Numbered from the stretch's first letter, positions 2,246 to 34,874 are shown. The stretch is DNA of 56,737 nucleotides from Psammoneis japonica (GCA_008632985.1 QPGO01000028.1:615598-672334); one strand, 5' to 3'. Numbers and translations: made by a program. Notes: generated by a model not told the origin, from the sequence alone.

Positions 2246-3175
2246 TTACTCCAATCCCTGTTGACGTAAAAACTGCGGGTCAAACTTCTTGACACCTTCA
2301 ATATCCAGAGATTCCTTCACTGACTTGTGTACCCAGAGTGTCTCTCTCCACCGCGACAAGCGCATAATTTTCTCATACCCATACTGTTCAAAAATATGCC
2401 TAATGCCCGCTGTAGGTCGCTCCACGGTCAGGACCGAAATGGTGTACTTTTCAAGCGGAAATGCCTGCAAGATGAATTCCTCGGCTCCCTCTACGTCCAG
2501 CGAGACGTAATCGATATGACGAGGAGCGTCATAGCGCTCAAAAATCTCCTCCAGAGTCACTGTATACCTCAGTAAGGAATTTCGCTGCCAACGCGGTCCG
2601 TTATCAAAGCCGTTTCCGGCAATACCTCCGTGATCACCCGCTTCAAAACGAAAATGGACTTCATCCATCGTTTTATTCCCCACCACCGCAGCAACCACTT
2701 GACAATCACGGTACGTAAGATTGGACCAATAGACTGGATTGGGTTCAATACAAATACCGCTCCAGCCAAAACGCTTCTCCAAAGCAAACGTGTTGGAAAA
2801 CACCGTGGCGTCATTTGCTGCCAAATCGACAAAGTACCCATTTGTCTTGCCTCGAAACAAGGTATGGACCACTTCATCCTGATGCACTTGAGAATACCAA
2901 ACTCGAGTTTCATTTTCTAATGGCAAGTGTGTGGAATTTCCATAGAAAACATCGATCGAGTGCCAACCGTCGTTTTTCTTTTTCAAGTTTTCCTTCAAGA
3001 GATGAGCTTCACGTGGGGCATTCTGCAGAGGATCGTTTCGTAGTACTTCCAGTGGAGTCGTCGTCGTCATTAGACCTCGCAAGATTCCCAACAAGTATCC
3101 CGAGACAAAGGCAATGGAAATCACCAGTACGGATAGTGTTGTGTGACGTGCGCTGGCCCTTCGAGAGAACATCAT
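2246..3175 (-). CDS. FkbM/Methyltransf_21-family SAM-dependent methyltransferase with N-terminal membrane anchor
   Basis: Motifs YSQVHQD, GYFVDLAAND, SNT, WSGICIEPN and IDYVSLDVEGAE; hydrophobic N-terminal helix. Confidence 0.88.
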   Translation of the reverse strand: MMFSRRASARHTTLSVLVISIAFVSGYLLGILRGLMTTTTPLEVLRNDPLQNAPREAHLLKENLKKKNDGWHSIDVFYGNSTHLPLENETRVWYSQVHQDEVVHTLFRGKTNGYFVDLAANDATVFSNTFALEKRFGWSGICIEPNPVYWSNLTYRDCQVVAAVVGNKTMDEVHFRFEAGDHGGIAGNGFDNGPRWQRNSLLRYTVTLEEIFERYDAPRHIDYVSLDVEGAEEFILQAFPLEKYTISVLTVERPTAGIRHIFEQYGYEKIMRLSRWRETLWVHKSVKESLDIEGVKKFDPQFLRQQGLE

Positions 3176-5024: not shown

Positions 5025-6408
5025 ATGACGGTCGACTACGCTGCCATTGACAAGGCGATCCGCGCTTGCGAAACTGCTGATGACGCTGTCTCAGTTTACG
5101 TTTACAATGCATCGTATGAATCATGTCTCGATCGACTCGAAGAAGCGCAAATGGACCAAGTACCGATTGAGGCTTGGGCCGAAGCCTGGGCTCGGTCGTT
5201 GACCAAGAAGGAGGCTGACGCGGTGCAGTTGAACAAGGATCGAAAGGTTGCACTACTGCTTCTCTATCGATTGTGTGACTTGAAGAATGAAAACAAAATT
5301 ACCAACGACGACATTGTTAAGAAATTCCGTCAGGAACGTATCCAGCGAATTTTGAGGCTTTGTTTGGTGATGGACCGCGCCAATGCTCTATACAATATGG
5401 TGCATGCCAATAAGCGTGGGATGCACTGGTTTGCCAAGCGAAATACAGCACAAGAAAAGCAAGCCGCCGGAATTCCAGAGGATTATGATGGAGGGCACAT
5501 GCTAAATCGCCGTATACTTGAGCTTTGCGATATTTCAGAACTCGAGCTCTTGCAAGACCCTGATTTCGCAAGGTGGATCAAACCGGCAGTATCTAACATG
5601 CGTCTGGAGGAAAGTACCGGCGTAGCCAAGATGCCTGAGACGGATAATGAAGAAGGTACGACACTGAACTAGAATTTGCTTATAATGTGTTTCATGCTAC
5701 TTTTTCTAACATGTTTTTGAATTCTTCTTGAAAGGCACAAAGGACGCCAGCCATCCCAGCATGTGGTCCATTTCCTATACACAGCTCGTCGAGTTCCACC
5801 AAGAGGCATCCAAAAAGTTTGGAGAGAAATATGGCAAAATGACAATGCATGACATTACCGATAAAATGATTCGTCCTCGTTGTCAACAAGAGGAGAAGTC
5901 GTACGCCTTACACCTTAATCCAAGTGGCTTGAAGCTGGACGTCTTTGTCACTCATGCCTGGAACGAGCCCTTTGGGCAGTTTGTTGAGTCCCTCATTCGA
6001 GTGCTTGCCCCCGCCTACAAGAAACCCAACCTGTGGATTTGCTCCTTTGCGTTAAATCAAGCCGACCCAGATCGTCTTGAACAAGAGCTTACGGAAAGCC
6101 CACTGTCGGACGCACCGTTTGTCAAGGCACTGAAAGATGCCAAGCGATATGTGGTGGCTCGCAATGGCAACACGGACGTGTTTACTCGCATCTGGTGCGT
6201 GTGCGAAGTAATGTACGCCAAGCACTTTGATCTCATTCCCGATCGCACCGACGTGACTGGTCCCGGAGCCACCTCCAAAAAGAAAATCACTTGCATGGAT
6301 GCCAAGGCGAAGATTCCCAAGGACAGAGACAAGATCATCAAAGAGCTTCTCAATGATCACAGCCGTGAGGGAATTGATGATTTCATCAATGATTTCCGAT
6401 TGCACTAG
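5025..6408 (+). CDS. Two-exon protein with C-terminal HET/TIR-like domain
   Basis: Phase-1 GT-AG intron 5656-5734 joins ORF 5025-5672 to ORF 5728-6408 in frame. Motifs FVTHAW, LWICSFALNQ and FTRIWCVCE parallel the HET-domain S-x-x-W, WID..CINQ and R-x-W-x-x-x-E motifs. Confidence 0.7.
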
Positions 6409-7666
6409 AGCAGTTGGCAATTGTGTGCAGCATGTTCGTTCTTTATGTGCATTTTTTCACGAGGAAACACAAGCCCGGCAACTCGTAAAAGAGACTTGAA
6501 ACTTCTCTGGGTAGACAGGAGATTCATTGCCAAGGGGGGAATCGTCGATGCAGGTTCTTAAACGTGCACCAAGCCCTGCCCTGGCAGAGACAACACAGGG
6601 AGCACATCTCTGAAGAAGCTGCTGTAATTTAGAACACAACTCGTGACAGATGCTCCCCTTGTTGTTGTAGACGCGAGGGAATCAGGCCTTTGCCACATTT
6701 TCCCTGCGATCCCGCACGCATTCTAAATTGCACCGGACATGCAGTGTCTTAAAACCTTGGGCTGTTGTGGCTTTTCGCTCTCAGCCAGATGGCTTGGATG
6801 AGGCATTTGCGAACTGGCATGAGAATCTTCTGTGAGTCTTGAGTGATTCAAAATTCAGGTGTGCCAGTGAAGGCCAGGTGGCAAGCAGTTTGTCAGTGTT
6901 GAAGAAGAGTTGGGCTGCCCTGGTTTAGGGTGTGAGTTTGCAGTGGCTGGAACTTCTTGCTTTCAGTTTTTTGTGCAAGGGGACATGGAAGGGAGTCACA
7001 GTCACGATTGGGTGGGCATTGGAAAATTTTGAGGGGTCAATGCTGAGGCTGGAGCATGGGCTGAGAAGTGTCTGGTGGCAGCTGCAGAGCCAGCAGGTGC
7101 ACACTTGGTGTTGCCATCATGGATTGGAAAACCTTGTTGCTTTGGAGCTCCTGGGTTTGAGCTTGGGAGGAATGCTGGCTGTTGTTTGGTTGGTGTTGAG
7201 GTTGCTCCTGCACAATTTTCACTTGGAGCTGAAACAGGCAGGCCTGCTGAGCTTGCCAAGTCTTGGTTGGCAGGTGACAAATGTCCAGCAAAAGTGGGAC
7301 AAGACCATTTTGTGTGGATGTCCATCTTCTCAAGTCGCCAGCTTGATGGCAACAATGCGGCCCCAAGTGTTGGCCTTCTGTGGTGCTCATTGAGACAATG
7401 AGACTTGAGCAGCAAGCAACTCACTTGAATTATCCATTTGTGAAAAGCACTGGCCTTGATCTGACAACCCCAAAACACGGACAGTGTTTGTCCATTTTCT
7501 CAGCATTTTGTGAAGCTGTTTCTCAACCAGGTCATTGTCAACAGCATCCGCAGCTTTCAATGTCAGCATTGTGCTCTCACACACATGCACCACACAGTTG
7601 TGAGTTGGCACTGAGCCTGGGCCAAGCTTTTGCCTTGCATCATCTTGGGTGACACACCCCCTGGAA

Positions 7667-8232
7667 GACGTGTTCCAGCCGCACGTGACCCAAATCGTGC
7701 ACAAAAACGACATTTGCGCGATTTTTGCGCGGTCTCTGACTTACGAACGGTTTTTCACCACCAAAAGTATAGATTTATTCAAATTCTAATGTTTTGCAAC
7801 ACTAACAAGACTCGTGTGAGTGTTGCAAAATCATTGTTATTGTGCCATCAATGTTTTTCATTGCGATAAACGAATCGTAACACAACGGATGATTTTCGGC
7901 GAAATTATTGCCGTTATTTGGATGTTAACTAAATATATCTTTCTACGATGGTATTTAGTATATTTGCTACTTACAAAGAAATTTACGTATAAAAAGTACG
8001 GACGTACAATCAGTATTGAGTCTACTGAGGAAGTTTATGATACATATCCCATGAGGAATTTGATACCCCACAAAAAACTATTTAATTCTTCATAATTATT
8101 CACACTCTAGACGCCTATAAAAGCCAATCCGTTTAAGTATTTTATATGAAAATACTTCATACACTAATATATACATGCCTTATATTCAAAATCGATTGTC
8201 GTTTTGTGTGTCACCTGGGACTGGAACACGTC
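7667..8232. mobile_element. Non-autonomous DNA transposon (MITE), 566 bp
   Basis: Perfect 12-bp TIR gacgtgttccag / ctggaacacgtc, extending to 23 bp with 3 mismatches. 4-bp TSD GGAA at 7663-7666 and 8233-8236. AT-rich non-coding interior. Confidence 0.85.
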
Positions 8233-8606
8233 GGAACTCTGTCAAATGATGCATCAATTCAAGAGTCTCTCTTTTTCTTGATGCCAAGCTGTGGTGTGTT
8301 GCCCTTGTTTTTGAGTTGTGTGATAAAAGGGAGTCACCTTGCAGCTTGGGTCTGGCTGGGTGCATGGATTGTCTTGTCACAGGGTGCTCATGTCTTGTGT
8401 TTGTCCTTTTTGGAGGCTGCCAAATTCTCTTGTGAATGACGGTGGCAAATGACAGTGTTGCTCAACTTGGGCTCTGTCATGTGCACTTGGGATTTCTTGG
8501 ACTTTGCAGTGCATGCTTCCCTTTTTTGTTTCCTTGGATCTGATTTCAGCTGCTGATGTCTTCCTTGCCATCTCTGATTTGCCCTTGAAAAAGATGGCAG
8601 CTGTGC

Positions 8607-8882
8607 TGACAGAAATTGAAGGCAAATGGCAAGAATTCAAACAACAACTCCTCACTGCTGTCTAAACAGCAGATGAGTCTCCGCTCAGAGACCGTCACAG
8701 GAGCCGAAAGACGTGTGAGTCGGCACAATCGGGCTACTGTCATCATTCTTGTGAGCCTTGTGGCTCGAAAGCAAACTACATCGCGCGTGAACGCGCGGAA
8801 CTAAAGCACACAAAACTGTGCGCGGTAAACTAAACAGTGCGCGATGCTTCATGCGCATCCAAATCCTGTTCAAATCCTGTCA
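8607..8882 (-). repeat. 3' LTR of family A copy 1
   Basis: Direct repeat of 15444-15719. I count 14 differences, all transitions. Confidence 0.95.
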
Positions 8883-11800
8883 CTCCCCAGTTTGCTTGAG
8901 GAGCCACAGAAACAGATTCGACTTCGGATGGAATGAAGTTCCAGAACATGAGGGGGCGGAGAAGGTCCCAGATTTGGGAGTGACCCCAATGCTTGCTGAG
9001 AATGTCAGCAGGGTTGCGGGAGCCTTCGATGAAGTGGAACTCAAGGTGACCAGAGGCAATTGCCTCACGCACACGGTGGAACGATGGTGTGGTGTGTCGC
9101 TTGTGTAACTTGGAGTGCGGGATGGTGGCACTGTCTACAACCGACTTGTTGTCACCGAACATGTAACCAATGTTACGGATCGGGACGCCAAGGCAGCGCA
9201 GGGTGATGCGCAGGTCGACAATCTGCTCAACACAAGTCCTTGCGGCAACAAATTCAGACCCGCAGGTTGCAGTCTCCACGGTGGCTTGTTTCTTAGAGAA
9301 CCAATCAGCCGGGAATTTGTTGAGGAAGTGGAGCATTCCCATGACAGAGCGTCCGGTGAGCATGCAATGGTGCAAGTTTGCATCGACGCAGTGGGTGGCA
9401 GTGACGAACTTGCCAAGGGGCGGTGGAGCGTCCTTCGGGATCATCTCTTCTGCTTCACCACACACGGAATGCATCCATTCATGGGCCGGAGCAGGGAGAT
9501 CCGAACAGTCGGGCTCTTCCGTGCGAACGCAGAGAGCACCGTGTCGCATCTTGGAGAGGCACCCACAGACGCGTTTGGCACGGTCCAAGTGGCCTTGACG
9601 GGGTGCAGCTCGGAAGCTAGAGAGTGACATGATGGCCGTGGCAATGTCAATTCGACCAAGGGACACTGCCCATTGGAGTGAACCAACAAGAGACTGGAAC
9701 TTGTGAATGCCATCGGGTCCCAGCAGTTCGGAAGTGTCCAGTTCGGGGTGGTCACCCTTCTCCAGAGGTGACAGGGTGTTGGTGGCAGGTTTCTCCCCAA
9801 ACAGTCGGGCATGGCTGTCGACCATGCGCTCGATGTACTTGCGCGGAGACAGGCACAAGGTTCCGTCGGGTTCCCGGGAAAAGTCGCAACCCAGATGGAA
9901 CTCAATGGGTCCCGCACCCTTGAGCTTGAACTTGTGATTTTCCGTGAGAGTGTCGACGAAAGATTGAGGGTCCTTCATGGCAATGGCGAGGTCATCCACA
10001 TAAACGGCAATGCACCCACAGTGGTCGCCGTTCCTGCGCATCCAAATGTCGGGTTCGGCGCGGCAGGGGAAGAAGCCTTCAGCTCGCAGGCAGTCGGCGA
10101 AGCGCTCGTGCCAGCGGAGACCGGAGCTGCGCAGTCCATGCAGTGCCTTGTGGATGACAAGGATGTGTCCTTCGAGTTTGCCGAACTCGGGTCCAGCTAC
10201 AATGTAAAGCTTCTCCTTGGTGGTGGCTTCAAGGCAGGCATTGCCAATGTCGGTGGCCCATGTCTCCAACTCGTTGAGTTCGGCCAGGAAAATCATCAGC
10301 CGAAGGCCACGGAGGGAGACTGCTCCGGAGTGGACACTGTCGACAGGTGCGTCCGTGAGGTGCCTGTCGGCTACGAGTCGTGCCTTGTGGCGACCGTCGT
10401 GTTTCACGTCGTACACTGGGTGCACTCGGATCTTCTTGTGTCCCGCAGGAGGAGTGGAAGACTTGAAGGGCCCGCAGTCATGGAAGACTTCGCATTCGTC
10501 GAGTTGGTCCATCTCGAGATTAGTTGTGTCTCCCCACTTGCGGTTGCCGTTGCGTTCGTCTAGTGACATGGCGTGTTCGTAGTTCCGGGGAACTTCGCAT
10601 CCATGCTTGCAGCGAGGTGCAGTGCGGAAGGAGCGAAGCTTGGCTTGGTTGGCCATGCGAAATAGCTTCTTTTGGCGCCTCGCGATGGTGCGGAACCGCT
10701 TCCAGCCATCCGTGTCGAGGAGTCCGTTCTCTCGTGCATAGATGGCACAGGTGACGGGGTCGTCCTTGGCGATGATGGCAAGAGGCTCGGACGTGATCTC
10801 CCCACTTTCCCATTCAAGCATGATGTTGTAGCTGGAGCCTTTCCAGGTTGGGTCGTGAGGCTTCAGAGGTCCTTCGTGCGACACGATGCGTCGAAATTTC
10901 CAAACAGTGGCATCTTCGTCTTCTTGCTCAATGTGATTCATGATGTCATTGCAGGCAAGGACTTCCTCGTATTCGTCATTGTTGACAGAGCAGACGAACT
11001 CAGTGAGCTCGGGATTGCCGTTCACTTTCCATTCGTGGTCTTCGACGGCCTTGACGATGCGAGCTCTGTGGCGTTGTCCGTCCTCTTGTGGCTGCATGAG
11101 GAAGGTACGTCCAATGATGTCTTGCGGATCGAAAACTGGCATCTTGGGTGTCCTGATCTCCCCATCAGGAGAGTCGACAGGGTTGTCGTCATGGCGAGAT
11201 TTGATGATGGGTTCAGGTGGCTCCCCATCAGGAGGATCAAGACGCAGGTTTCGAGCGGCAGGATCGGGGGTAGCGGAGCGGACGTTGGACCGGCGGAGGA
11301 TCTTCTGAGTCTCGTCAGATAGAATCTTGAAGGTCATCTGGTGGCCGACGTGCTCAGCAATGCCAACGAAGCGCCCACGCAACTCACGGGATTCGGACGG
11401 CCAATCGGAGTCATCGAGGTGGAAGCACACGGGTTCCCACCAATGAAAGCGAAGCAACGGGCTGATGTCCGGGGTGGAGCCAGTGAGAGTCTCGAGGGGC
11501 GTGCGCCAGTGGAGACGTGGGGACGCTGCATGGTTGAGCATGAAGCACACGCACATGAGCACCAGCAGCCATGTGTGGGCGGGCGAACCAAAACGATCCA
11601 TGACAGTGTTCGCCATGCGCTTCACGGTCTGGTGTCGACATTCGGCAAAGTTTTGGTGTTGCTGGTGAGGCTCACTTTGCCAGCTAGAGATGAAGAGGGC
11701 GCGCAGGATCCCGAGCACTTTGTTGCTGATCTCAACTTGAGCACGGTCGCTAATGAGTTTGGATGGGGCACCACGTTCACGGATCTGATCCTCGAGTGTG

Positions 11801-14502
11801 TTGACAAACTCTTTGTCCGTCTCAGTGCCGCAGACGTCAGTGACGGTAGACTCGGTGCCAACAAACAGTTGGGCGCTGGTGCAACCAGAGTCGACGGCCG
11901 GGGTGTCGGCACAAATGGTGTCAGTGGCGACAGGCTCGTTGCGGCGGTGCACATTAAGGGCGGGGTTGGGTGATTTGCAGGCCTTGCGAAGGTGTGTGCC
12001 GGCGGGCATGCGGGCGTACTGCGTGGTGCAGTCAAAAGTACGACGGACCGCATCGGTGGGTAAGAAGCCAAAGCAAGGCCGAAGAGACTCGAAGGGGGGG
12101 TCCTTGGGCTGTGCAGTGCGCTCCGGAGGTGGAACGTCGTCGCCCTGGGGGCCAATCGCATGCAGATGACACTCGTAGAACACGTCGTCGTTCGGAATGA
12201 GGTGATCATCGAGGGCGGACGCGTGATCGGCAGACAAGGAAGCGGACATGATGGTCTCGTTGACAACGACACGATGACGGCAGTTGCCGCATTCGTCAAA
12301 CAGGTTGGCAGTGGGATCGTCCTGCAGGTCAGAGATCGCATCGTGCCACTGGTCGTCGTCAGTGACAGAGTGATCGAGGACGGAAGGGTCCCATGTGTCA
12401 TCACCGGTGAGGATGACATGGGGCAGGGTGTCCCATTCGGCGTCAGTGTAAGGTCGCATGGCAACACAAGGCAGGCCAGCCTTGATGTCAATGGGGATGA
12501 CACAGCCATCAGGAGTGGCAATGCGTTGCAAGCCGTTGGGCACCTTGACAGAGCGATCGTTGACATCCTGTTTGCACCATTCGAGCTGGCCGCAGGAATG
12601 GATGGTCTTGCCCTTTCCCGTGCATGCGCACTGATGGAGGATGGCGATGACGGGACCACGCTGGGTCTCAACAACGGCACCAGCGGTGACAATGGGGATG
12701 TCCACCAATTGATGATTGTCAATGCCCTGAACGTCGACTTGGCGAGAGGTGCGTGCAATGACGCAAACGTCGTCGCCAGCAATGCCGCCGTTGGCCCCAC
12801 GATCGACTAGAGCACCAGTGCGTGTGGAGCGATGAGCAGAGGCAGAGTGAATGACATTGTGGTTGTCAACGCGGCGGCAAGTGCGGCCGTTGAGTTCCAT
12901 GTCATCTGCAGAAGCTGGCGGGGTAGAGGAAGCGGCGGATGGCCCCGGTTGACTGGCATTGTGGGCTTGGTTAGGAGACAACAGACGTTGCAGATCACCG
13001 GGTGGCAGTGGCTTGCGCTTGGTGAGGTGCGCCAGGATGGGATCATCCGAAGTGGCGTCCACATGTGGAGCGGAGTCACCAGAGTCAGCAGGAGTCGTGT
13101 TGGACAAGTTGACATCACCGTCACTCCCAAGGCGTTGGTCGTGAAGGTTGGCCGTAACAGACTCATGGCAGTCACTGGCTCGCGGGTTGCGGGGAGGTGG
13201 ACGACGAGAATGCTCAAGGATGATCGCCTTGGAGGAATCGGGCAACGAATCCCAGAGCTGTTGGTGGTCGGGAGGGAGACGTCTCCATTGGACACCGGTG
13301 AGGCTGGGACCGCGGGTGCAGGCAGCATTGGCCTGAAGGACGTCAACGTCGCTGTCAATGTCGCAGAACACATCGTCGGACGGTTCCTCGGAGTGGACGT
13401 CATGTGCGCACATGGCGCGTCGGGGAGCTCGAGGTGTTGTCTTGGGTTGAAACGTGCTGTCGTGCTGAGCTGCTGCGGAGAGGAGCAAGCCACAGCATTG
13501 ATTGCATGTGAGGCTCTTGCCACTCTGTGCACGATGCTGATCAGCTTGGTTCTTGACAGCACGGAGTTCCTCGACAGGGTGCACGGCATTCTCGAGCATG
13601 ACGCGCTTCTGTCCTTCAGAGAAGTGGTCACTGGCCGGGATGAGTGCCTCGCACTTGCGCAACTGATCTTGCCAATGAAGGATGAACCCGTGGGTCGGAC
13701 CTTTCCAAGTGCCATCACCAAGACGAGCGGTGGTCAGGTGCGTGAGCAGGGTGGAGGACTCGACAGATGCACGGGTGGAGGCAAGCGCGCACTCAGACAA
13801 GGAGCGGCAGACGGTCTGTGCGTCAGAAGACCCCACATTTTCGCGAATGAGAGCCTTGCCCTTGTCGGTGAGAAGGATGCGTTCGAAGACGGCGAACATG
13901 TGCTTTTGCTGTTCAGCAAAGAGCAGTTTGTCTTCGGGGCTGGTCGGTTTGTACGACGAGTCTAGAATGCACTCGACGTCTTGGGCACGGGCTTGTGCCA
14001 CAAGTGAGGTGTGCCAAGTGTGCCACTGCTTGTCGGATTTGAGAGCCGTGAAAGCGGTGGGATCACGCTTGATGCCTCGCTTGAAGTCCCGCACCGGGTC
14101 GCGTGCCTTGGTCGGGTTGGTGACATGTGGAGGTGCAAGGGGTGAGCTGCCGATGGACACAGAAGACATGTGGTCGGGGCTGAGGCGGCAGGCAAGGAAC
14201 TCGTCATGCATGAACAAAGAGGAGTCGTTGGCAACGTCAAGACCTTTGTGTGCTTTGACAATGCACAGACTGACCAGTGCTGCCAACATGTTCTTATAAC
14301 CACGGGGCAAAGGGATTGCATCAGTGCCGTTGTCGCACTCAAGCGAGTCGATTTGGGACGGCATGAACGTGAATGGTTCCTGATGCGAGTCCGTGCCGTC
14401 TTGGGCCAAAGCCAAACGAAGAGGACTCCCAGCACCTTGGGCAAGCACGGTTCCAACCACGTGCTCGAAACCATCGGTTTGTTGCTGACGAGTGAGAACC
14501 AT
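8830..14502 (-). CDS. Copia Gag-Pol polyprotein; frame open but hypermutated, probably non-functional
   Basis: Protease LVDRGANGG; integrase VATDT, LISDRA, SEPHQQHQNFAE; RT KARLVA and YVDD; RNase H DNKS and NPADILSK. Many normally conserved Tyr are Cys or His (DIGNAC, KALHGL, TATCGSE). Confidence 0.93.
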   Translation of the reverse strand: MVLTRQQQTDGFEHVVGTVLAQGAGSPLRLALAQDGTDSHQEPFTFMPSQIDSLECDNGTDAIPLPRGYKNMLAALVSLCIVKAHKGLDVANDSSLFMHDEFLACRLSPDHMSSVSIGSSPLAPPHVTNPTKARDPVRDFKRGIKRDPTAFTALKSDKQWHTWHTSLVAQARAQDVECILDSSYKPTSPEDKLLFAEQQKHMFAVFERILLTDKGKALIRENVGSSDAQTVCRSLSECALASTRASVESSTLLTHLTTARLGDGTWKGPTHGFILHWQDQLRKCEALIPASDHFSEGQKRVMLENAVHPVEELRAVKNQADQHRAQSGKSLTCNQCCGLLLSAAAQHDSTFQPKTTPRAPRRAMCAHDVHSEEPSDDVFCDIDSDVDVLQANAACTRGPSLTGVQWRRLPPDHQQLWDSLPDSSKAIILEHSRRPPPRNPRASDCHESVTANLHDQRLGSDGDVNLSNTTPADSGDSAPHVDATSDDPILAHLTKRKPLPPGDLQRLLSPNQAHNASQPGPSAASSTPPASADDMELNGRTCRRVDNHNVIHSASAHRSTRTGALVDRGANGGIAGDDVCVIARTSRQVDVQGIDNHQLVDIPIVTAGAVVETQRGPVIAILHQCACTGKGKTIHSCGQLEWCKQDVNDRSVKVPNGLQRIATPDGCVIPIDIKAGLPCVAMRPYTDAEWDTLPHVILTGDDTWDPSVLDHSVTDDDQWHDAISDLQDDPTANLFDECGNCRHRVVVNETIMSASLSADHASALDDHLIPNDDVFYECHLHAIGPQGDDVPPPERTAQPKDPPFESLRPCFGFLPTDAVRRTFDCTTQYARMPAGTHLRKACKSPNPALNVHRRNEPVATDTICADTPAVDSGCTSAQLFVGTESTVTDVCGTETDKEFVNTLEDQIRERGAPSKLISDRAQVEISNKVLGILRALFISSWQSEPHQQHQNFAECRHQTVKRMANTVMDRFGSPAHTWLLVLMCVCFMLNHAASPRLHWRTPLETLTGSTPDISPLLRFHWWEPVCFHLDDSDWPSESRELRGRFVGIAEHVGHQMTFKILSDETQKILRRSNVRSATPDPAARNLRLDPPDGEPPEPIIKSRHDDNPVDSPDGEIRTPKMPVFDPQDIIGRTFLMQPQEDGQRHRARIVKAVEDHEWKVNGNPELTEFVCSVNNDEYEEVLACNDIMNHIEQEDEDATVWKFRRIVSHEGPLKPHDPTWKGSSYNIMLEWESGEITSEPLAIIAKDDPVTCAIYARENGLLDTDGWKRFRTIARRQKKLFRMANQAKLRSFRTAPRCKHGCEVPRNYEHAMSLDERNGNRKWGDTTNLEMDQLDECEVFHDCGPFKSSTPPAGHKKIRVHPVYDVKHDGRHKARLVADRHLTDAPVDSVHSGAVSLRGLRLMIFLAELNELETWATDIGNACLEATTKEKLYIVAGPEFGKLEGHILVIHKALHGLRSSGLRWHERFADCLRAEGFFPCRAEPDIWMRRNGDHCGCIAVYVDDLAIAMKDPQSFVDTLTENHKFKLKGAGPIEFHLGCDFSREPDGTLCLSPRKYIERMVDSHARLFGEKPATNTLSPLEKGDHPELDTSELLGPDGIHKFQSLVGSLQWAVSLGRIDIATAIMSLSSFRAAPRQGHLDRAKRVCGCLSKMRHGALCVRTEEPDCSDLPAPAHEWMHSVCGEAEEMIPKDAPPPLGKFVTATHCVDANLHHCMLTGRSVMGMLHFLNKFPADWFSKKQATVETATCGSEFVAARTCVEQIVDLRITLRCLGVPIRNIGYMFGDNKSVVDSATIPHSKLHKRHTTPSFHRVREAIASGHLEFHFIEGSRNPADILSKHWGHSQIWDLLRPLMFWNFIPSEVESVSVAPQANWGVTGFEQDLDAHEASRTV

Positions 14503-15443
14503 GGTGGACAAAAGTGGTGTCAGGACAGTCAATTCTGGTTGGGAAGAGAAGGTAGACTCGAAACTTGGGTGAGAGTGGACTTGACTTGAAATGGACTTGA
14601 CTTGAAATCTTGAACCATCTTAAAATCAGAAGTCGCCGGGCTTTGTCATCCCGTTCGTTGTCAAGTGCTAAACTTCCCATCCGGTCCGTAGAGTTGTGCC
14701 GGCACGTCCGAACCCGCAGCTGGCGGCGCTTTGGGTTGCTTGCGAGCGGAGCAGCGGGTTGTAAACCCCTGCAGGCAAGCTGACCAGAGGTGGACAAGAC
14801 CCCCGAACCGTTCTTATTTTGTGTCGGTTGGATTTCCCGATCAGGCTGGCCAGTTGACGCTGGCGTCAGGCGCTGTGGACGAACGAACAAACGTGGGAAA
14901 GCACCCTCGCCCCAACGCAGGCTGCAATCACGGCTGCTTGCTCTCACAGTTGTCCTCGTGGACCTAGCAGAACTGTAGAGCACCAGCAGTCCGGGGTAGA
15001 TCAGGTACAATGGACTCGGTGTGCCTGTAGAGTGGTGGCAAAACCGCAGTCCGAAGAGTGGGTACAGGTTCTTGGCCGTGAAGATATGTATATATATATA
15101 TATGTCTTCAGCGACGAAGATCCTTGAATATGTAGGGTTCTTGACCGTTAACCGATGAATGGGTATATCAAGGGATGAGGATCAAGGATAGACTTGGATA
15201 TGACCGTTGAATGTATGTCTTCAGCGGTCAAAGGTAGTATAATCAATCCAGATATCCAGCGGTAAGGAGACTTGACGGTGACGTTAACTTCCTGCCGATG
15301 CCCTGGTGTCGAATGCGCGTAGACTTGCCGATGTATGTAGAACATATACGGAGGTCCACGTAGAATTGAAATAGCGTCGTTGGTAAATCAACGACGACGA
15401 TGGCGGTTGCTCAATGGGTTGACAATGAGCAAGACTGTTAATC

Positions 15444-15719
15444 TGACAGAAATTGAAGGCAAATGGCAAGAATTCAAACAATAACTCCTTGCTGCTGTCT
15501 AAACAGCAGATGAGTCTCCGCTCAGAGACCGTTGCAGGAGCCGAAAGACGTGTGAGTCGGTACAATCGGGCCACTGTTGCCACTCTTGTGAGCCTTGTGG
15601 CTCGAAAGCAAACTACATCGCGCGTGAACGCGCGGAACTAAAGCACACAAAACTGTGCGCGGTAAACTAAACAGCGCGCGATGCTTCGCGCGCATCCAAA
15701 TCCTGTTCAAATCCTGTCA
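15444..15719 (-). repeat. 5' LTR of family A copy 1
   Basis: Direct repeat of 8607-8882 and inverted match to 54535-54810. Confidence 0.95.
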
Positions 15720-16788
15720 TGTGCGGCGCTGTGCTGTGAGAGATCTTTCTGCTGGTGTGGTCATCTGTGAGGACACACAAGCCACACCCACGCTGTTTGC
15801 ACTTTCCAACTAGATTGTTTTCCTTTGTGCTGGACACAAGCTCTCATGATCTGGTGTTCCTCCCTTGGTTCTCCACAGCAGCTGCTGGTGGTGGCAGCAT
15901 GTGCAACCTGATGAGTCAGCCTCCAGTGCAGAAGAAACTTGACAGTTTCAAAAAAAAAGAAGCTCAGCCAGGTGGGGGGCATTGAGTGGTGGATGGATGG
16001 CATGTGGGAGGTGGTGGGGGTGTTCTCAATGCTGGCAGTTGTTGCAGTGCCAGCAGGTGCAAATTTGGGCAGCTGCCGAACACAGATCCCCGCGCAATTG
16101 TTTTGGGGCTCCTGGATGAGAAACCTCCTTGGGTGGAAGAGTGCTTGATGTGATTTTGTCAGTGATGAGGTCACTGCTCCTGTGCATGACCCTGCACCAC
16201 TTGGAGCAGCGGGTGCATCTCACAGCCAAGTTTTGCAATTTTTCTTTTGGGCTTGTTGTGAGCAAAAACAAGTGCGCCACAACGAGCAACTTGCACGCGC
16301 CTCTCTCCTTCCTTGTTGGTGCTGTTGCAGATTGCAAATCTGTGGCACTTTCACCCTTTTTGCCTCACTGCCCCCCACCTGACCCATCATGTCAGCCAAG
16401 AACTGTCCTTTCCAGCTTGTCCGTGGCGGGAGGGAAGGGTCGGCAAGCAACCCGCAAAGAGAGAGAGGTTGCCGTGCTGCTGCTGCCCTCGCTTCTTCCA
16501 TTGATCCAGATGGAAACAAATCATCTTCAGTTGAAGTTATAAAGTTATGTTCTGTGGACCCTGAAACGAAAACGTTCTTGCTCTCATTCAGTGTCAACTC
16601 TTTCCTTCAAAGAGACTGAAGTTTGGGCCATCAAAAACAAAAGATTTCATTGAAGTCGTGTGAGTCGACTCGAATGACTCCGACTCACAGGACTAACCAA
16701 CGACGTCGCCGAGTTCCAAGTTATTTCGCTTTGACGCATAAAGAAGCCATGACAGTGACAGCGGTGCGCATCCCGTTTTTGTTTCACC

Positions 16789-20359: not shown

Positions 20360-23300
20360 CTGCTTGTGTCGACTTTTCGAAATTGCTCTGTTCTTCTTCT
20401 TCTCGTCATGCCCCGATTCTTTTCAACAGAAGGATCATCTGGTGACACTTGCTTCTCTCTGTCTGTGAACCAAGGAGCATCAGTAGGATAATCTACCCAA
20501 CCGACAGAGGTCGAAAGCTCTGGGTCCTCATTGCTGCCCTTGTTAATCTGCTCTCGTCCCATCGACATCTAGGTGAATGTAACAAACTGTTAGCCCTTCG
20601 CAATGTATTGACATGAGAAACTGTGAGTTGCACTGGATGACTGATGACTGATGCTTGCCTTATGTTTGTTCGACGCTTGCGTTTCTGCTTCTTCATCCAC
20701 CTTTTTACCATTGCTTTGTTCGCTGTTGCGCACATGGCTTCCATGCGTTTCACCGTTGTCGTGCTCAGTGGGATTCATCATGGTTTTGGAAGTTTGACGC
20801 GATGATGCTATCATGAGTTTCGGAAATGCGAAATTGAAAATGCGACAGGACCAAGTATGTCTCAGACGTAGGATCCTACGCATCCGCGATCTCTGTCTTG
20901 TGAGTGAAAACGAGAACTCTGGGGCGGGAGAGTGCCTTGTCGGACGGTCTCCATCTTCTTCCGTACCACTTACAGACCTCCCAGTTGGGAGTTGACGGTC
21001 TCGTGCTTTCTCGTCAACAAGATGTAGATCAGCTTTTCTCGTTTCCATCACGGACGCGAAATTTGTGCAACTTTCATGTAACACCTCTTGGCGTTTTTGA
21101 ATCTTTTGCGTGTTGTCTCGTTGGTTGTTAGATGTTCAGTCGTGATGCGATTGATCTGCTGCGTTCCCACACTGACGCTGTGTGGCACCTGTTGGCCCTC
21201 AAATGCCCCTGGTGTTGTGTTTGCAGCTTTTGTTTTTTGTTGCACAGATGTTCAAGGTTCAATGAGGATCCCTTCATTGTGGGAGCTTGAGAAAGGTTGA
21301 GTTCATTGGATGTGGACCCAACTGGTGTGCCCATCCACTTTGCGCGGAAAATCAAAAAAGAGTGTGTGCTTGGATGTTCTTTCCCTGGTCGATCTTGGAG
21401 ACCCAACAAAACAAGGGAATCTCTTGGTTGCAAATCTTGTCATGGTGTCCTGTTAATGCCATTGCACTGGAAACAAAGCTGCTGACCCCACGCTGTCTTG
21501 AACCAACATTGCTGCCCCCCCAGACACCGCCGCTTTGTTTGGAAAAAAGTTGGCTGGCCCTGCCTGTTTTAATGCCATTGTGGAAACCATTGGAGAGGGC
21601 ACTGAAGTTGGCCAATCTGCCCAAAGTGTGCCAGCTTCCCCCATGAAGCAAGTGCACTTCTCACCAAAGCATCAGAAAAGAGTTTCCAAACAACAACTTT
21701 TGGACAACTTCCAAGTGATTTCTGACACAACCCTCCTGTTCTCCGTGCCGGTGCACCCCAGAATCCAAAAACATTCACCAAAAAGAAAGCAAACCCAGAC
21801 CACAGCTTCTGATCAAAAGGCCAGTGCTGCAGCTGAGAAGTCCAGTCAAGCATGCTGGCAAGAACATTTGAGCTCCATGGACCATTCTTGTTCAGAACCT
21901 GGATTTTTCTGTCCCTGTTGATGCTGCAAATGGCGCTTCCATTGTGGTGCTGCCAACTGGGTCCTTGCAGATCCTGACACCAAAAATCTCAGGTGCTTCA
22001 CCTCAAACAACACTGCACCAACATGTCAAAACATTGCACTTTGTCTCAACCTGACCCAGGCAACCTGGAAGTGATGCAACACAAAGCACTGCAAATTGCT
22101 CCAGGAGGAGCAAGATGCTTGAGTGCCACATCAATGTTTTCTGTCATTTCTGTGCCAATTTCCAGCAACTGCAGTGCAAATTGTTCACTTTGTCAGAGCC
22201 AACAACTTTTTTTTGAAAACCCAGATGGGTGATGGAGAGTCAATGCAATGGCATCATCACTCCATTTGATCAATGGCAGCTCTCACAGCCAATGCACAGT
22301 TGTCAACGTGGCTGGGAGTCCTCGTCCAATGTGTTGACAAGACCATTGAAACCTCAAGTTGGCTGTTGGACTTGGAAATCATTGCAAAAGCTTGTTGACC
22401 ATGCCAGAGAGAGCACTCAATTGTGTTGAGCACTTCTGGCAGATGGTGGATGGCATTGCAAAGCAAAGCTGCAAGTGCAAAGACTTGTTGTTTGGCTCTT
22501 TTGGGTGCTCTTGAACACCTCCTTGGGCTGGTGCATTGGGTGCAACAGAGCTCATGGGACCCTTGGCTGGGGGCATTGCATCCCAAAGTTTTTTTCAGTG
22601 GCATGTCCAGGAGATGATCAAAGACTCTGCTGTCTCCTGCTGTTCCTGATGTGGCAGAGCAATGCCTCTTGGTGACAAGAAGACAGGATGAGTGGCATCA
22701 GAAGCCACTTGTTGCTCAAGTTTGTGTCACAAAAGGTTGTTTGCAGTGATGCACCCCCATGATGAGATTGGTGCTGATGAGTGCCAAGTTGGGCAGAACA
22801 ACCACATGGTTGACCGCTCCAGCTTGGAACTTGGAATTGGAGTTTGCAGCTCTCTAAGATGTTGGACAACAGCAATGGCACTGAGGACAGAATGGGTGAT
22901 TGTTGCTTTTTGATTTGTGATTGGGGTCAATTGGAAGTTTCAAACAGAGTCACAGATGATGGTGTTTTGAGTCTCAAGTGGCGGTGCAGTTTGGTCATGA
23001 TCCATGACCAAGTGAACCATGGCCGCTCAACAACCCATTAGAGTTTGCCTGCATTGTTGAGCCATTGCAGCATTCAAAGTGATTTCAAGATCATCATCTT
23101 TCCAGGTCATGCCAAGGGTTGTGATGACTGCCCCATCATTTTGCTCCGGCAGTGTCAAACACCAACCTTTTTGTCATCGTGACCCCAACAGCCCTTCTTC
23201 ACCCACACCACAACAAGTGCAAAAAATTCCATGCACAAGCTTTGGAGCTGGGTGCAGAGCTTGTGACAAGACAAACATGCCACATGTGAGAAATCAACTG

Positions 23301-25719
23301 CAGCAAGCTTTGCCACTTTTAAGAGCATTGCCGTGCAAATGAGGATGGGATTGTCAAGCTCAGATGGGTGAGCAATTGTTGTTGTGAAGCTTTTGCAACA
23401 GAATGTGTCAGCTTCTTACCTGTTTCCTTTGTTGGTTCACACCAGGAGGTGTCGTCTGGACCTGTTCACAATGGACACATTGAGAGGACAAAGAGAAAGG
23501 GCCTGCAAATTTAGGCTGCCTGCACTCAACAAGCTCATCAAGATGTTCAAGAGGTGTGGCTGTGCTCTTGACTTTGCTCTCTCAAGCTTGTCAACAATGC
23601 TGCTGAAGAAGGCAGTGCTTTGAGTGCAGCACAAATTTTTGAAGTTGTTGTGGCTGCTGTGTGGCTTGCACTGGCTGATTTTTTGTTTTGTGCAAGACCA
23701 CATCATGGAATCCTGCTCAACACATGGAAGAAAAAAACCTGTGGCACCACTGGAGATTGACATGATTGTCAACAATGTGCCATGTGGTGTCTCAGTCAGC
23801 ACCCAATCTCATGCAATCACCAGGGAGGCAACCTGCAAGCAGAGGCCCATCTGCCTTGTCACTGCTGGTTCTGACCTTTGGCAGATTCTCACTCCTCAAG
23901 GGGAGTGCCCCCACTTTCTTGGCTTGCCTGCAAGCAGAGGCCTGCCTTTCTCATTGCTGCTGGCTCCAACCTGGAAGATTCTCACTCCTCAAGGGGGGGT
24001 TCAGCCTCTGCCATTTCAGCTTGTGTTTTGTCTAAAATGCCTGTGTGATTTTGCAGACATTGGCAAACAATGACCTCTGAAAGCAGCACCTTGCCCACAC
24101 CTCATGCCAACTGTTGAGCACCAACATTGTGTGTGTTCACTCTCTTGCATTGCATGGCAATGTTTGCACAAGTGGACCCAAATGGTTCACAAAGAAAGAA
24201 AATTGGAGATGATTTTTGTTCTGCAACTGCCAGCAGATTTCTTTGCTTTCCCTGTGACAACAACATTGTCACTCTTGCTTGTGACATGACAAAGACATGT
24301 TGCATGTGTGCAAAAACAACAGAGAAGATCAACACAGTTCAGCACCAAAATGAAAAAATTGCAATGCCACATTTTTGCAAGAAATGTTTTCCCAGCAAGT
24401 GCAGCACAATCAACTGCCACCCACATCTTCCAAGAGTGCAAGAGATGCTGCTTTGAATTGGGCCCTCCACAAACACAATGTGGCCATGACCAACTGGAGG
24501 GCTGTTGAGTGATTGTCACTCTCCTGACCTCCTCCCACACTGTGAGGGACATGTCTGAGGAAATCCTGGAGAAAAAGAATTTACAATGATGGGCAAAGTG
24601 AGAGAACCATTGTGCATCAATGTGACTCTGAACAACGTTCAATGTGCCACACCCAATTGGCAAATGCTTTTGTGGATCATTCCCCAGGCAGACAAACAAG
24701 AAGTCATGGCATGCAAGAAGTGGCCAGTTTGGTGCATTGGGGTTGTCCAAATGGCAGTTGCTGATGCCCTGGAGAAAAGAAAACAAGCAACATGATGAGA
24801 GCTCTGCATCCACCAAAAACAGTGGGAAGCAAAAGGAGAGAAACAACTTGCAAGCAAACAAGAATGAAAAGCATTCAGTGCAGCTCTTAGCATGATGAGT
24901 GTCCACAGCATCCTTTTGGACCATGTGCGGCACCTCTGAATTGCACGCCACACATTTCCACAAAGCACTGAACTGGGTTGTCAAAAAATGACCCACATGG
25001 CAATTGCTTCATTTGTGGACCTTGGAAACACTGACACTTCACAAGTCTTTTTATCTTGTGTTCTGAGTTTTTTGTGGAATTTCTCCACCTTTCCCATGTG
25101 CACTCCATGAGAAAAGGAAAAGCAACAGAGGCAGCACAAGCATTGTGGACACATCACAGAAGGCTGTTGGAAAACCAGTGGCAGCATTGATGTGTGCTTC
25201 TCAGATGTCCTCACCCCACCACACAATGGCTCTGTTGAGCCTCTTTGTCTTGTGTCTTGAGGTTTTTTGTTGTGGTTCTTTGCCCTGCCTCTGAGTGCTC
25301 TGTGCTCTCCATGAGAAAAACAAAAAGCAACAGAGCACAAGCACAACCTGGGTGCATCATGATGGCGCTGGCAGACACGCACCATTTTGTTCTCCAAAAT
25401 GATGTGGGGCACCCACAAACTTTTGATGTGTGTCTGATCCTTGGTGCACAAAAGGGTGAATGTGAAACAAACAAGAGTTTGTGGACAGAGGACACCACCC
25501 TCCGCTGGACTCACCTGAATCGTCCAAAGTTGCCATGGTTGCCATGTTGCAAGTGTGGCGAAAATTTTTCAGCAGAATGTTGCGAGCTGTTGTTTTGGCT
25601 AAATTTGAGCCAAAAAAGTGGCAACCAACCCCCTGTAAAATTTCCAACAGCAGCTGTTTCCTGCGAAGTTTGATTTGTGACAAAGGAGTCTAGAATTTTT
25701 GTGACAGCCGGAATCCGGC

Positions 25720-26200
25720 ATGGCACCAGAGCTGCATCGACATGGCACTGCGGACGCTGTCACCATGGTGGATCAAGAGGTTGCAGCTGCTGACACAATG
25801 CTTTCTGCTTGTAAAATGGCATTGGAGTCCACAAGTGAGTGGAGGTCTCTTAAGCCAAGATTCCTGCAAGTGCAATCCTTCAAGCAAATGATTGACAACA
25901 ACGCAGTTTTGGGGGTTCCTCCGTCCCTTTGGCGTGAGAAACATGCCCTCACTCCAATCATAAAATCGTTGGAACATTGCAATGATGCTGGGGCAGTGTC
26001 GGTGGCAATGGTGCCAGCATCAATGGGGAAGATGACAGAAGCGAAGTTCTTCTTGCATGAGAACAAAGAGCAAGTTCAAGGGATTGCAATTTGTTGCACC
26101 GGTCAGCAATCGCACGACTCGTGAATGTGTGCGGCTGATGTGCAGATGCAGGTGGAGCAATCAAAGCACGGGGCAAATCCGGAGCCCGGAAGCTCGCCGA
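25720..26200 (+). pseudogene. Degenerate fragment of a possible P-loop NTPase gene
   Basis: VSVAMVPASMGK(M)T resembles a Walker A after a beta-strand. The frame is broken. Confidence 0.3.
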
Positions 26201-26575
26201 TGCACAAACTCGATCTTTCGTTGCTGCTGATGCTGTTGTGTTGTTGAAGCCAGTTTGGGCCGATCCTTCATTGCCATGGCGGCTGCAGAAGGAACAGAGA
26301 GGGCTGGCGTGGCCACCTCCATTCTTGATCACGACTTCAGTGACATTCAGGATGCAACCTTCCAGAACCAAATTTCCAAACACATTGCCGCAGCGGAGAA
26401 CCCTGAAGATGCGACCACCGTGCAGCACTGGGCGGAGATGAAAGTCCACAAAACGTCCAGTGCAAATGAGAAAGAGGAAACGGTGGAGTTTCGAGGCACC
26501 CGTCTTGTTCTGATTGCGGCCATTGAACAAGCCAAGTTGGATGCCAACTTCTTGCTCAATTTTCAAACCTCCATT

Positions 26576-26932
26576 TGTGGGATTCTACCTGGGGTGCAGG
26601 TCCCACCTGTAGAATGTGCTGCTGACAATCAGCACAAGGTGCTAAAAGCCAGTAAAACAGCAATGAGTTGTCTTGCCAACTCGTGCTCAGTTGAAATTGT
26701 GGGCTAAAACCAATCTAAAAGTGAATCTCTCATTTTGTGATCTGAAAGATCTTGGACAATGCCACGTCAGAAAACAGACATTCTTCGAATGTCACTCACG
26801 TAGAATGTGTGCCAAGAGTCACGGCGTAAGTTCGTCACTTGAATTGTCCTTTCCGATGTCCAACTCAGCCGCGTGGAAATTCCAAGAAGATTGGACGTCC
26901 TGAGATGTCCACAGTCATGCTAAATTGTCACA
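26576..26932 (-). repeat. 3' LTR of family B element
   Basis: TG...CA direct repeat of 32354-32710. Confidence 0.93.
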
Positions 26933-27780
26933 CTCCCTTTGAAAGTGTCGGGTGAAGCTGTGACTTGATCTAAAATCACCACTTGAGCAGCTTCTTTTGA
27001 AGGCGAACAAATGTGTTTTGAGGCACTGGCTTGGTCTCCATGTCTGCAATTTGTTCAGTGGTGTCAATGGGCAGAATGGAAATGATTCCCTTCCTGACAT
27101 GTTCCTTGAAATGATGTGGTGCCAGATTGAAATGCTTGGTTCTTGGTCTCATCTTGGGCAGTCTTGCAATTTCCAATGCACCTGAATTGTCCTCGGGTGC
27201 CTTGCAATGAACCAAAGGAGTCTTGGATGGCACCTTGTGTCCATGCTCTTGAAATTCCTTGATCAAATTGATGACAGGAGTGGCGCTTCGGAGGCTCTCG
27301 GATGGAGTGACATGTTCGGCTTCTGTCGCACTTAGCGCGATTTGTGTTTGAAGCTTAGATGTCCAAACAACAGGGCAGTCTGCGCAGGCAATGACGTGCC
27401 CTGTCCTGGACTTTGAAGTGCCAATGTCACAAGGGGCAGTCATTTTGTTCCAATTGCCTGCGAAGTCGGCATCGGCACAAACTTCCAATGACTTGTCTTC
27501 CATTGGGTCCAGAATGATGCCTTCATGTCTGGTTGCTCGCAAGCACTCACAGAGCCACAGTGCTGCTTCACCGTGTGATCGTTTGGGGTCACTTGAAAAT
27601 CGCGCGACTTGATGCACAGCGCATGCGATGTCGGGTCGAGTGCTCTTTTCCAGAAAATTCAATTTGCCGATGACGCTGCGACAGTCGAAGGACCCGTCAA
27701 AAGATTCTTCGTTCTCATGTCGATGTGGCATCTTTGAAGATGCTGCTGGAGTCTGCTTGTCCGGTGGACGGGTTCCAATC

Positions 27781-28148
27781 CTAGGTGGGACTTTTTGTGA
27801 CATTGGGCGCGTAGAATTCTACGTGCGAGCTCCGTAGTAAAATCATTAAGCAATGAAAATATGAATGATCGCTGACAGAAATAGAGGCAATTTTACGAAC
27901 GTATCTCCTCCTCCAAATTTGAAGTACGTTATTTATAGTTTGCCCGGGTATATTCTTTAGACATTAAAGAATATACCCAGCGCATTTTTATTGTCATAAA
28001 TGTAGAAAACAGAAAGCCTTTGGCTTCGCAAAAGAGGCAGTGTGGAACAATTTTTTACAATACAACACGTAGAAATGTACGTGCAAAACATACGACGGAT
28101 GACAAAAAATAATTATGTCACAGTCCAGCAGTGCGAGGTCCCACCTAG
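27781..28148. mobile_element. MITE (368 bp including terminal CTAGs) nested in the copia pol gene
   Basis: Perfect 11-bp inverted ends CTAGGTGGGAC / GTCCCACCTAG plus subterminal tgtgaca / tgtcaca. Collapsing to one CTAG restores the pol frame (PTRSSSR-IGTRPPDKQTPA), implying a TA or CTAG target duplication. Confidence 0.8.
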
Positions 28149-31100: not shown

Positions 31101-31255
31101 TTGGAGTTCTGCTTGCTGCCACCTCCCTTGGACTTGCTGGGACCACTCTTGAGAGCCTTGGAGAGCTTGAGGTTGTGATCCTTGATGGTCTCGACTTCTG
31201 TGGCAAGTGCAACAATCCTTTCCTGCTCAGGAGAGAGTGCTCCCCACTTGTCTGC

Positions 31256-32281: not shown

Positions 32282-32353
32282 TGTTGGATGGTTTGGGTCT
32301 CGATCAACAGCTGGCTTGAAATTGAAGTTGCGAAGCAGGTCGCAGAGGAAGCG

Positions 32354-34802: not shown

Positions 34803-34874
34803 ATGTTCCTTGTGAAGACACCTGCCTCATGTTGAAGGCTTTTTGAGAGCAGCAAGTGGCAAGTGCCATCTTTT

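Follow-up and report, generated by a model that had tools for sequence, protein, structure and literature searches.

TpA depletion and transition-only divergence point to hypermutation of double-stranded DNA in a copia retrotransposon family of the pennate diatom Psammoneis japonica

We analyzed a 56,737-nucleotide stretch of DNA from Psammoneis japonica (GCA_008632985.1 QPGO01000028.1:615598-672334), hereafter the window, with emphasis on a retrotransposon at positions 8607 to 15719 designated element A. A repeat search returned a single direct repeat pair (8606-8882 and 15443-15719), and pairwise alignment placed the true bounds of the two long terminal repeats (LTRs) at 8607-8882 and 15444-15719. 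Both LTRs are 276 bp long, lie in direct orientation, and end in TG..CA, and the element is enclosed by a perfect 5-bp target-site duplication (8602-8606 and 15720-15724). Element A carries a gag-pol frame, P0001 (8830 to 14532, minus strand), of 1900 codons without a single stop codon, in which the Pfam domain RVT_2 was detected at residues 1362 to 1573 (E value, 3.4e-24). A reverse transcriptase in the C-terminal third of the protein is expected for the copia gene order, and RVT_2 was the only domain reported by Pfam. P0001 aligns over its full length with copia-type polyproteins of ~1900 amino acids at 50 to 59% identity, and more than 1000 relatives of ~1900 residues are present in aquatic metagenomes, the best of which shares 70% identity. 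Element A is a complete Ty1/copia-type LTR retrotransposon in minus-strand orientation; its 5′ LTR is 15444-15719 and its 3′ LTR 8607-8882. It resembles the CoDi-type Ty1/copia elements of diatoms (PMC2806351) in its length of ~7 kb, its single long gag-pol frame, and its RVT_2 domain. A term search of that study (Maumus et al. 2009) returned no mention of deamination or dinucleotide bias, the words “transitions” and “mutation” occurring in unrelated senses only.

The GC content of element A is 57%, compared to 46 to 49% in its flanks, and its observed/expected dinucleotide ratio (O/E) is 0.27 for TA, 0.91 for CG, and 0.87 to 0.97 for AT. The family is very abundant, with a summed word depth of 54,000 to 286,000 versus ~60 for the unique flanks. 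Element A itself was recently inserted, its CpG O/E of 0.91 being one sign of youth. In addition, position 8601 runs directly into 15720 in one contig of the same sample, 5 letters being shared; such a joint is that of an empty site and suggests that the insertion is still polymorphic or heterozygous.

A preliminary description of this DNA had counted 14 differences, all transitions, over the 276 sites of the LTR pair. Our gap-free alignment of 8607-8882 with 15444-15719 gave the same result and contains every sequence example quoted there. If two thirds of changes were transitions, 14 of 14 would be expected with P = 0.0034; measured against the family's own spectrum (a transition-to-transversion ratio of ~10:1), the same outcome is unremarkable (0.91^14 = 0.27). 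Twelve differences fall inside pyrimidine-purine (YR) dinucleotides (background, 0.52; binomial P = 0.01), leaving just 2 in ~132 non-YR positions. Five adjacent pairs occur among the differences (P = 1.7e-4 in 100,000 random placements), and clusters are found at LTR positions 39-48, 90-91, 118-140, and 232-246. Three of the adjacent pairs are CA/TG flips, in which one LTR reads CA and the other TG (8653-4/15490-1, 8696-7/15533-4, and 8741-2/15578-9). Three further sites read TA in one LTR and CA in the other (8645/15482, 8724/15561, and 8735/15572). Three differences are CpG decays, all located in the 8607 LTR (8838, 8851, and 8852), for which CG is present in both the partner LTR and copy C, another member of the family. 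The last two are T>C changes outside YR and TpA dinucleotides in the 15444 LTR (15580 and 15583). In all, nine differences were assigned to TpA, three to CpG, and two to T>C outside TpA.

Copy C (54535 to 56737, plus strand) comprises a 5′ LTR (54535-54810), a leader, and the first 336 codons, at which point the end of the window truncates it. It is 92.3% identical to element A over 2205 bp, and its leader is more heavily TA-depleted. The base-by-base family comparison covers three LTRs, namely both of element A and that of copy C read on the reverse strand, and all 31 variable sites among them are transitions. Using copy C as the outgroup, the 8607 LTR has 8 derived differences, the three CpG decays among them, and the 15444 LTR has 6. 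At LTR positions 39-40 and 129-130, TA, CA, and TG are all present across the three sequences, and the copy C LTR retains no TA at the flip sites of element A. The same kind of divergence was found in a second, older copia element unrelated to element A (26576 to 32711, minus strand; LTRs at 26576-26933 and 32354-32711), whose LTR pair shows 36 differences, every one a transition, with 12 CA/TG flips. Taken at face value, the LTR divergence of element A is 0.051 (0.054 with the Kimura two-parameter correction). Because only 2 differences lie in the ~132 non-YR positions and none is a transversion, dating from these LTRs overestimates the age of the insertion, as had been proposed from the pair alone; the divergence is dominated by hypermutation, and the overestimate is several-fold. 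The absence of transversions among the 50 LTR differences of the two elements and the empty-site contig agree with this view.

To which state the variable dinucleotides trace back is best seen in the coding sequence, where P0001 is visibly hypermutated. Tyrosine (Tyr) accounts for 0.74% of its residues, compared with an average of 3.80% over 82 full-length homologues (minimum, 2.86), while cysteine (Cys) reaches 3.11% versus a mean of 0.94% and histidine (His) 4.89% versus 3.53%. At the 42 columns in which at least 80% of 30 homologues have Tyr, element A has Cys at 22, His at 9, Tyr at 7, and phenylalanine (Phe) at 4, such that 31 of the 35 changes are Tyr to Cys or Tyr to His. Because conserved Tyr residues became Cys or His while all other conserved residue types in this alignment were kept at 80 to 100%, TAY codons must have turned into TGY or CAY. 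A comparison with one Tyr-normal homologue gave a similar picture, the 72 Tyr positions being occupied in element A by Tyr (11), Cys (30), His (15), Phe (5), or another residue (11). Among 79 metagenomic relatives, the median fraction of Cys plus His at Tyr positions is 0.028. One metagenomic relative of 2759 bp, L075, has a TA O/E of 0.31, and of 39 positions occupied by Tyr in a normal homologue, 15 carry Cys or His; because it comes from another data set, the Tyr-to-Cys/His signature is not unique to the P. japonica genome. Neither A>G nor T>C can give rise to a stop codon, and the 1900-codon frame has therefore remained open despite the loss of most Tyr. The frame also extends 53 bp into the 3′ LTR (8830-8882), and its original stop codon, TAA or TAG, may itself have been lost to the TpA process.

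Noncoding sequence of the family tells the same story. A leader patch of ~480 bp in element A (about 14960 to 15440, minus strand) was spared and has a normal TA density, with 36 TA in 15001-15500, whereas most of these sites read CA or TG in copy C. Within this patch, a (TA)7 run near 15089-15102 is a mixture of TG and CA in copy C. Over the 2.2-kb overlap of the two copies, 41 sites read TA in element A and CA or TG in copy C, and the opposite holds at 3. Contigs from four runs of one sample, aligned to element A, revealed 273 transitions versus 25 transversions at family-wide variant places. Among the sites listed, 10604-5 is a mixture of CA (.47), TA (.26), and TG (.27), and 9168-9 one of TG (.44), TA (.44), and CA (.12). 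The ancestral TA claimed at the outset is therefore supported by the Tyr replacements, the (TA)7 contrast, and the three-state LTR sites. Triples reading ATG in one sequence and GCA in another were considered as possible three-base events; this was rejected, as they resolve into a CpG decay beside a TpA conversion from a CGTA ancestor.

The depletion of TA follows a block structure along the window in 500-bp bins. In repeat blocks, TA O/E ranges from 0.01 to 0.25 and ~85% of TA is gone, whereas neither TA nor Tyr content departs from normal in host genes. Host-like blocks contain 41.2 TA per kb and depleted ones 6.1 per kb. The spared host open reading frames (ORFs) with Pfam domains, FkbM (2246-3175), FKBP (44014-44955), and AAA_16 (47401-48141), have 2.8 to 3.9% Tyr and lie in blocks with a TA O/E of 0.5 to 0.7. 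Younger blocks, i.e., element A, copy C, and the second copia element, have lost TA and kept CG; older ones (21.5-25.5 kb, 34-37.5 kb, 48.5-50.5 kb, and 53-54 kb) have lost both, hardly anything but CA and TG being left, with a CG O/E of 0.08 to 0.24 in those at 22-26 kb and 34-38 kb. Other repeats are affected as well. About 1 kb past the second copia element, inside a block depleted in TA and CG, a 171-bp satellite forms a tandem array of ~6 units with 87 to 93% identity (33737 to 34802). CA/TG flips distinguish these units at 4 dinucleotide columns. In a tandem repeat of a host-like block, the differences are 7 transitions and 5 transversions, with no flip among them. Since the leader at 14960-15440 is normal in element A and converted in copy C, the process is patchy within a copy and not simply homology-driven, the spared leader being as repeated as the rest of the element.

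Survival of TA also depends on its neighbors. It is 0.01 in ATAT, 0.02 in ATAC/GTAT, 0.06 in ATAA and in ATAG, and 0.12 in GTAC, rising to 0.29 in TTAA, 0.40 in CTAA, and 0.41 in CTAG. TA preceded by A or followed by T is almost wiped out, and CTAG and CTAA are relatively spared. A comparison of edited and unedited strand contexts at 41 sites, aimed at telling whether the base at −2 or that at +1 drives the preference, showed no difference.

Around element A, the regions compared were 6001-7500 and 15720-16500. The left flank is normal over 7501-8500, and 8001-8500 retains 27 TA; the right flank is TA-depleted, with 0 TA in 16001-16500, though its contig has a single-copy depth of ~61. Element A may border on an older mutated block, or else the process may leak on one side.

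The preliminary description had further argued that the changes arose independently on both strands and that they do not reflect ADAR-like RNA editing. Both arguments withstood closer analysis: each LTR carries derived states, A>G and T>C are found on one strand, and changes at the RNA stage would be common to both LTRs, yet the LTRs differ. Both strands were also hit within a few bases of each other. Between copies, the residues of elements A and C at eight informative Tyr-majority columns are Cys and Cys (3), His and Cys (2), Cys and His (1), His and Tyr (1), and Tyr and Tyr (1). Because derived residues differ, the two copies, which disagree at 4 of these 8 columns, were converted separately from a Tyr-bearing source. 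The table of YR states in A versus C fits independent loss from ~104 ancestral TA in 2.2 kb, which corresponds to a normal TA density.

These data can be confronted with editing before integration, in which RNA (in an ADAR-like manner) or single-stranded cDNA would be deaminated in each cycle, copies would arrive already mutated in the manner of APOBEC3-hypermutated proviruses, and LTR differences would come from reverse transcription. Each copy does look independently mutated from a TA-normal source, as dead-on-arrival editing predicts, and the mutated tract of element A stops before the left flank; changes at the RNA stage, however, are passed to both LTRs and leave no difference between them. 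The conserved Tyr columns show a mild excess on the sense strand (22 Tyr to Cys, sense A>G, versus 9 Tyr to His, sense T>C), consistent with such editing, but the occurrence of both classes, together with the LTR differences at edited sites, speaks against RNA hyper-editing of the ADAR type. As for cDNA, editing of minus-strand or strong-stop DNA predicts sense T>C in the 3′ LTR and sense A>G in the 5′ LTR, an orientation seen in only 7 of 15 CA/TG flips (0 of 3 in element A and 7 of 12 in the second copia element). Processive single-strand editing was rejected, since no strand-coordinated runs were found in the copy C outcomes (runs test, P = 0.32 and 0.46). Conversions in the element A LTRs gave CA in 5 of 5 cases in one LTR and TG in 3 of 4 in the other, which we treated as chance (Fisher P ~0.05). 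Tandem-array units and blocks without any retroelement domain carry the same signature, and a comparable process in the chlorarachniophyte Bigelowiella natans acts on resident chromosomal DNA according to the preprint text (Mettrop et al., bioRxiv 10.64898/2026.01.13.699255). We consider editing before integration unlikely. Because the LTRs differ, the orientation of the flips is not fixed, and strand-coordinated runs are absent, the changes appear to have been made on finished double-stranded DNA, independently in each LTR.

Chromosomal, TpA-targeted A:T>G:C hypermutation would explain the signature of the element A LTRs and of the family, and we put its probability at about 75%. The signature and its polarity, its restriction to repeat blocks, the independence of copies and LTRs, and the sequence context are shown by the data; the proposed course of events is as follows. 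Element A would have inserted, with its double-stranded DNA completed before any change. The process would then act, most probably in the chromosome, converting A:T to G:C at TpA on either strand so that TA becomes TG or CA at random, and each copy, and each LTR of one copy, would be struck independently. The three TA/CA sites and the three flips, at which both LTRs would have lost the same TA on opposite strands, would make up the nine TpA-process differences, and the remainder would be three methyl-CpG decays and two T>C changes beside an edited site. Action on chromosomal DNA in the diatom is likely by analogy with B. natans, and the chemistry may be adenine deamination by an ADAT2/TadA-like enzyme, as the B. 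natans preprint proposes; a thymine-modification route to T>C is indistinguishable from adenine deamination by sequence alone. Modified thymine (5hmU) and transposon silencing in dinoflagellates are the subject of another study (PMC11572971). The process presumably serves as genome defence. A dinoflagellate host with modified thymine was dropped as a candidate: a search for the spliced-leader motif gave one match with 2 mismatches, a level at which 23 of 100 shuffles had at least one, and the best named relatives of the FKBP protein are from the pennate diatoms Fistulifera, Epithemia, Nitzschia, and Cylindrotheca (42 to 53% identity).

Gene conversion from diverged family copies could have overwritten parts of the LTRs, in which case the transition spectrum would mirror family polymorphism. 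The abundance of the family and the clustering of the LTR differences are compatible with this, as is the fact that some element A states are minority states in the family. However, the cluster at 118-140 interleaves changes derived in the second LTR around changes derived in the first at 135-136, and the LTRs of the second copia element, with their 36 differences, repeat this pattern. Conversion would also bring in transversions and indels, which represent 25 of the 170 differences between copies A and C and are missing from the 50 LTR differences, and a TpA process would still be required to create the family polymorphism. This explanation is, in our opinion, still less credible than editing before integration.

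The caveat had been raised that CA/TG pairs might descend from CG. Three of the 14 changes are ordinary CpG decay, with CG kept in the partner LTR and copy C, and the older blocks of the window have lost CG as well. The flips themselves are better explained from TA. If all CA/TG differences came from a methylated CG deaminated on opposite strands in the two LTRs, the 18 to 21 CG retained per LTR and the 3 single decays would lead us to expect ~0.05 double hits, versus 3 seen. Moreover, CG O/E is 0.91 in element A versus 0.27 for TA, CpG decay cannot remove Tyr codons or turn (TA)7 into a mixture of TG and CA, and sites at which TA, CA, and TG coexist need fewer steps from TA. A CpG origin of all CA/TG differences is thus very improbable.

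Several observations nevertheless weigh against TpA-targeted hypermutation. Outgroup parsimony in its simple form splits the 14 LTR changes into 7 AT>GC and 7 GC>AT, the polarity being mixed because the flips and the 3 CpG decays are counted in, and it reads the site 8724/15561 as CA>TA. Deriving the three flips from TA requires two hits per site; a homogeneous model of independent hits on retained TA sites predicts ~0.2 flips versus 3 observed, and the flip count fits only if most target TAs were already converted (q ~0.5 per LTR). Position 9085-6 is 98 to 100% CA in the family and TG in element A; because of this, some flips must begin from a state other than TA, i.e., from CA or TG, passing briefly through TA or CG. 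Two LTR changes, and ~4 in the second copia pair, lie outside YR dinucleotides, unlike in the B. natans data. The base-by-base comparison is limited to three LTRs, and the empty site is modest evidence, being known from one contig whose shorter side has just 30 letters. Finally, with no platform recorded for either the runs or the assembly, the two may not be independent. Strand-dependent miscalls at palindromic TpA would yield CA/TG/TA alternatives, but an assembly or base-calling artefact (a modified base misread in silenced repeats, or polishing with reads from other copies) is hardly credible given that contigs of four runs match the TA-poor family sequence at 95 to 99+% (3622 pieces at ≥99% in run X1 and long pieces with 2 to 21 differences in X2 to X4), the host genes of this window look normal, polishing with multi-mapped reads should presumably homogenise the LTRs, L075 from another data set carries the same Tyr-to-Cys/His signature, and the preprint text describes the same signature measured with Illumina data in B. 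natans.

The closest known system to TpA-targeted hypermutation in the diatom is that of B. natans. According to the preprint text, two integrated viral regions acquired 231 mutations in mutation-accumulation lines, of which 230 were A>G or T>C, every one of these 230 at TpA (Mettrop et al., bioRxiv 10.64898/2026.01.13.699255). The rate was ~6e-7 mutations per site per generation, in some lines only; TpA-poor coding sequences were enriched for reverse-transcriptase and DDE domains; and an ADAT2-like deaminase was proposed as the agent (bioRxiv 10.64898/2026.01.13.699255). As in the diatom, A:T changes to G:C at TpA on either strand, TpA is depleted and CpA plus TpG enriched, and the process strikes foreign or mobile DNA only, sparing host genes, and is patchy and not always active. 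The two systems differ in their hosts, a chlorarachniophyte (Rhizaria) in one case and a pennate diatom (Stramenopiles) in the other. The B. natans rates come from a single-copy giant-virus insert and a virophage, whereas high-copy LTR retrotransposons and other repeat blocks are concerned here. TA O/E is 0.45 in the viral region and 0.01 to 0.25 in the diatom repeat blocks, and the diatom process is deduced from sequence data only. The context rule of the diatom, in which ATA/TAT is hit and CTAG/CTAA spared, was not found in the Results and Discussion of the preprint. Our data extend a signature of the B. natans type to diatoms and to retrotransposons, and full-text literature searches returned no report of TpA hypermutation in diatoms.

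The diatom process is also the mirror image of fungal repeat-induced point mutation (RIP). Both are transition-only and dinucleotide-specific, act on both strands and independently in each copy, and inflate LTR divergence. However, RIP turns CpA into TpA, makes repeats AT-rich and TpA-rich, and creates stop codons, while in the diatom TpA is destroyed, repeats become GC-richer, and stop codons cannot arise. Nor does the diatom process seem simply homology-dependent, since the leader of element A escaped despite being equally repeated. RIP of the fungal type was itself ruled out for element A by its TpA O/E of 0.27, its GC content of 57%, and the lack of stops in 1900 codons. ADARs are known from animals, and animal ADAR and APOBEC3 likewise produce deaminase-type, context-dependent clusters of transitions in retroelements. 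Unlike the process seen here, they act on RNA or single-stranded cDNA and leave changes that are asymmetric between strands and either common to the LTRs or ordered between them; the diatom changes fall on both strands at random, and the LTRs differ. ADAR is described as preferring a 5′ U in the text of the B. natans preprint (bioRxiv 10.64898/2026.01.13.699255). A broader proposal, to which we give somewhat less than even odds, is that diatoms have a RIP-like defence of opposite polarity that erases TpA, preferentially in ATA/TAT, from new or silenced mobile DNA while the insertion is still heterozygous, perhaps through an ADAT2/TadA-like enzyme acting on double-stranded DNA, and that this would be an old immune mechanism shared by the clade of Stramenopiles, Alveolata, and Rhizaria (SAR).

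If chromosomal TpA editing operates in diatoms, which are major ocean primary producers, a mechanism measured in one chlorarachniophyte would prove to be widespread and open to study in tractable diatom models. If it is shared by Stramenopiles and Rhizaria, transposable-element dating and gene prediction would be systematically distorted in SAR genomes. Such a process would kill coding capacity by replacing Tyr with Cys or His without introducing stop codons. LTR-divergence ages would be inflated in hypermutated elements, and these elements would keep long open frames, TA-poor DNA giving spurious ORFs on both strands that mislead annotation. Repeats would moreover be hidden, as each mutated copy becomes unique in its k-mers. 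The context rule (A-TA or TA-T hit, CTAG and CTAA spared) narrows the search for the enzyme, and a natural editor of double-stranded DNA making TpA-specific A>G changes would interest the base-editing field.

Within the window, the effect on annotation is readily apparent. Because TAA and TAG are erased, TA-depleted DNA is rich in ORFs, with many of 100 to 390 codons in several frames and on both strands (e.g., in 9811-14299, plus strand, and in 21000-39500), nearly all without a Pfam match. Of the 76 ORFs listed for TA-depleted blocks, 64 were scanned with Pfam, and the matches were limited to RVT_2, zf-MYND, a weak Pol_BBD, and a DNA_methylase fragment. The last is an ORF at 34943-35413 (plus strand) matching C-5 cytosine DNA methylase (PF00145; E value, 1.6e-6; profile positions 24 to 141 of 324) in a block that has lost TA and CG alike, and it may be a decayed methyltransferase gene or a transposon-borne one. 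The MYND zinc finger (PF01753; E value, 3.1e-9) is encoded by an ORF at 32608-33141 (plus strand) that starts inside the second copia LTR at 32354-32711 and runs beyond it within TA-depleted sequence.

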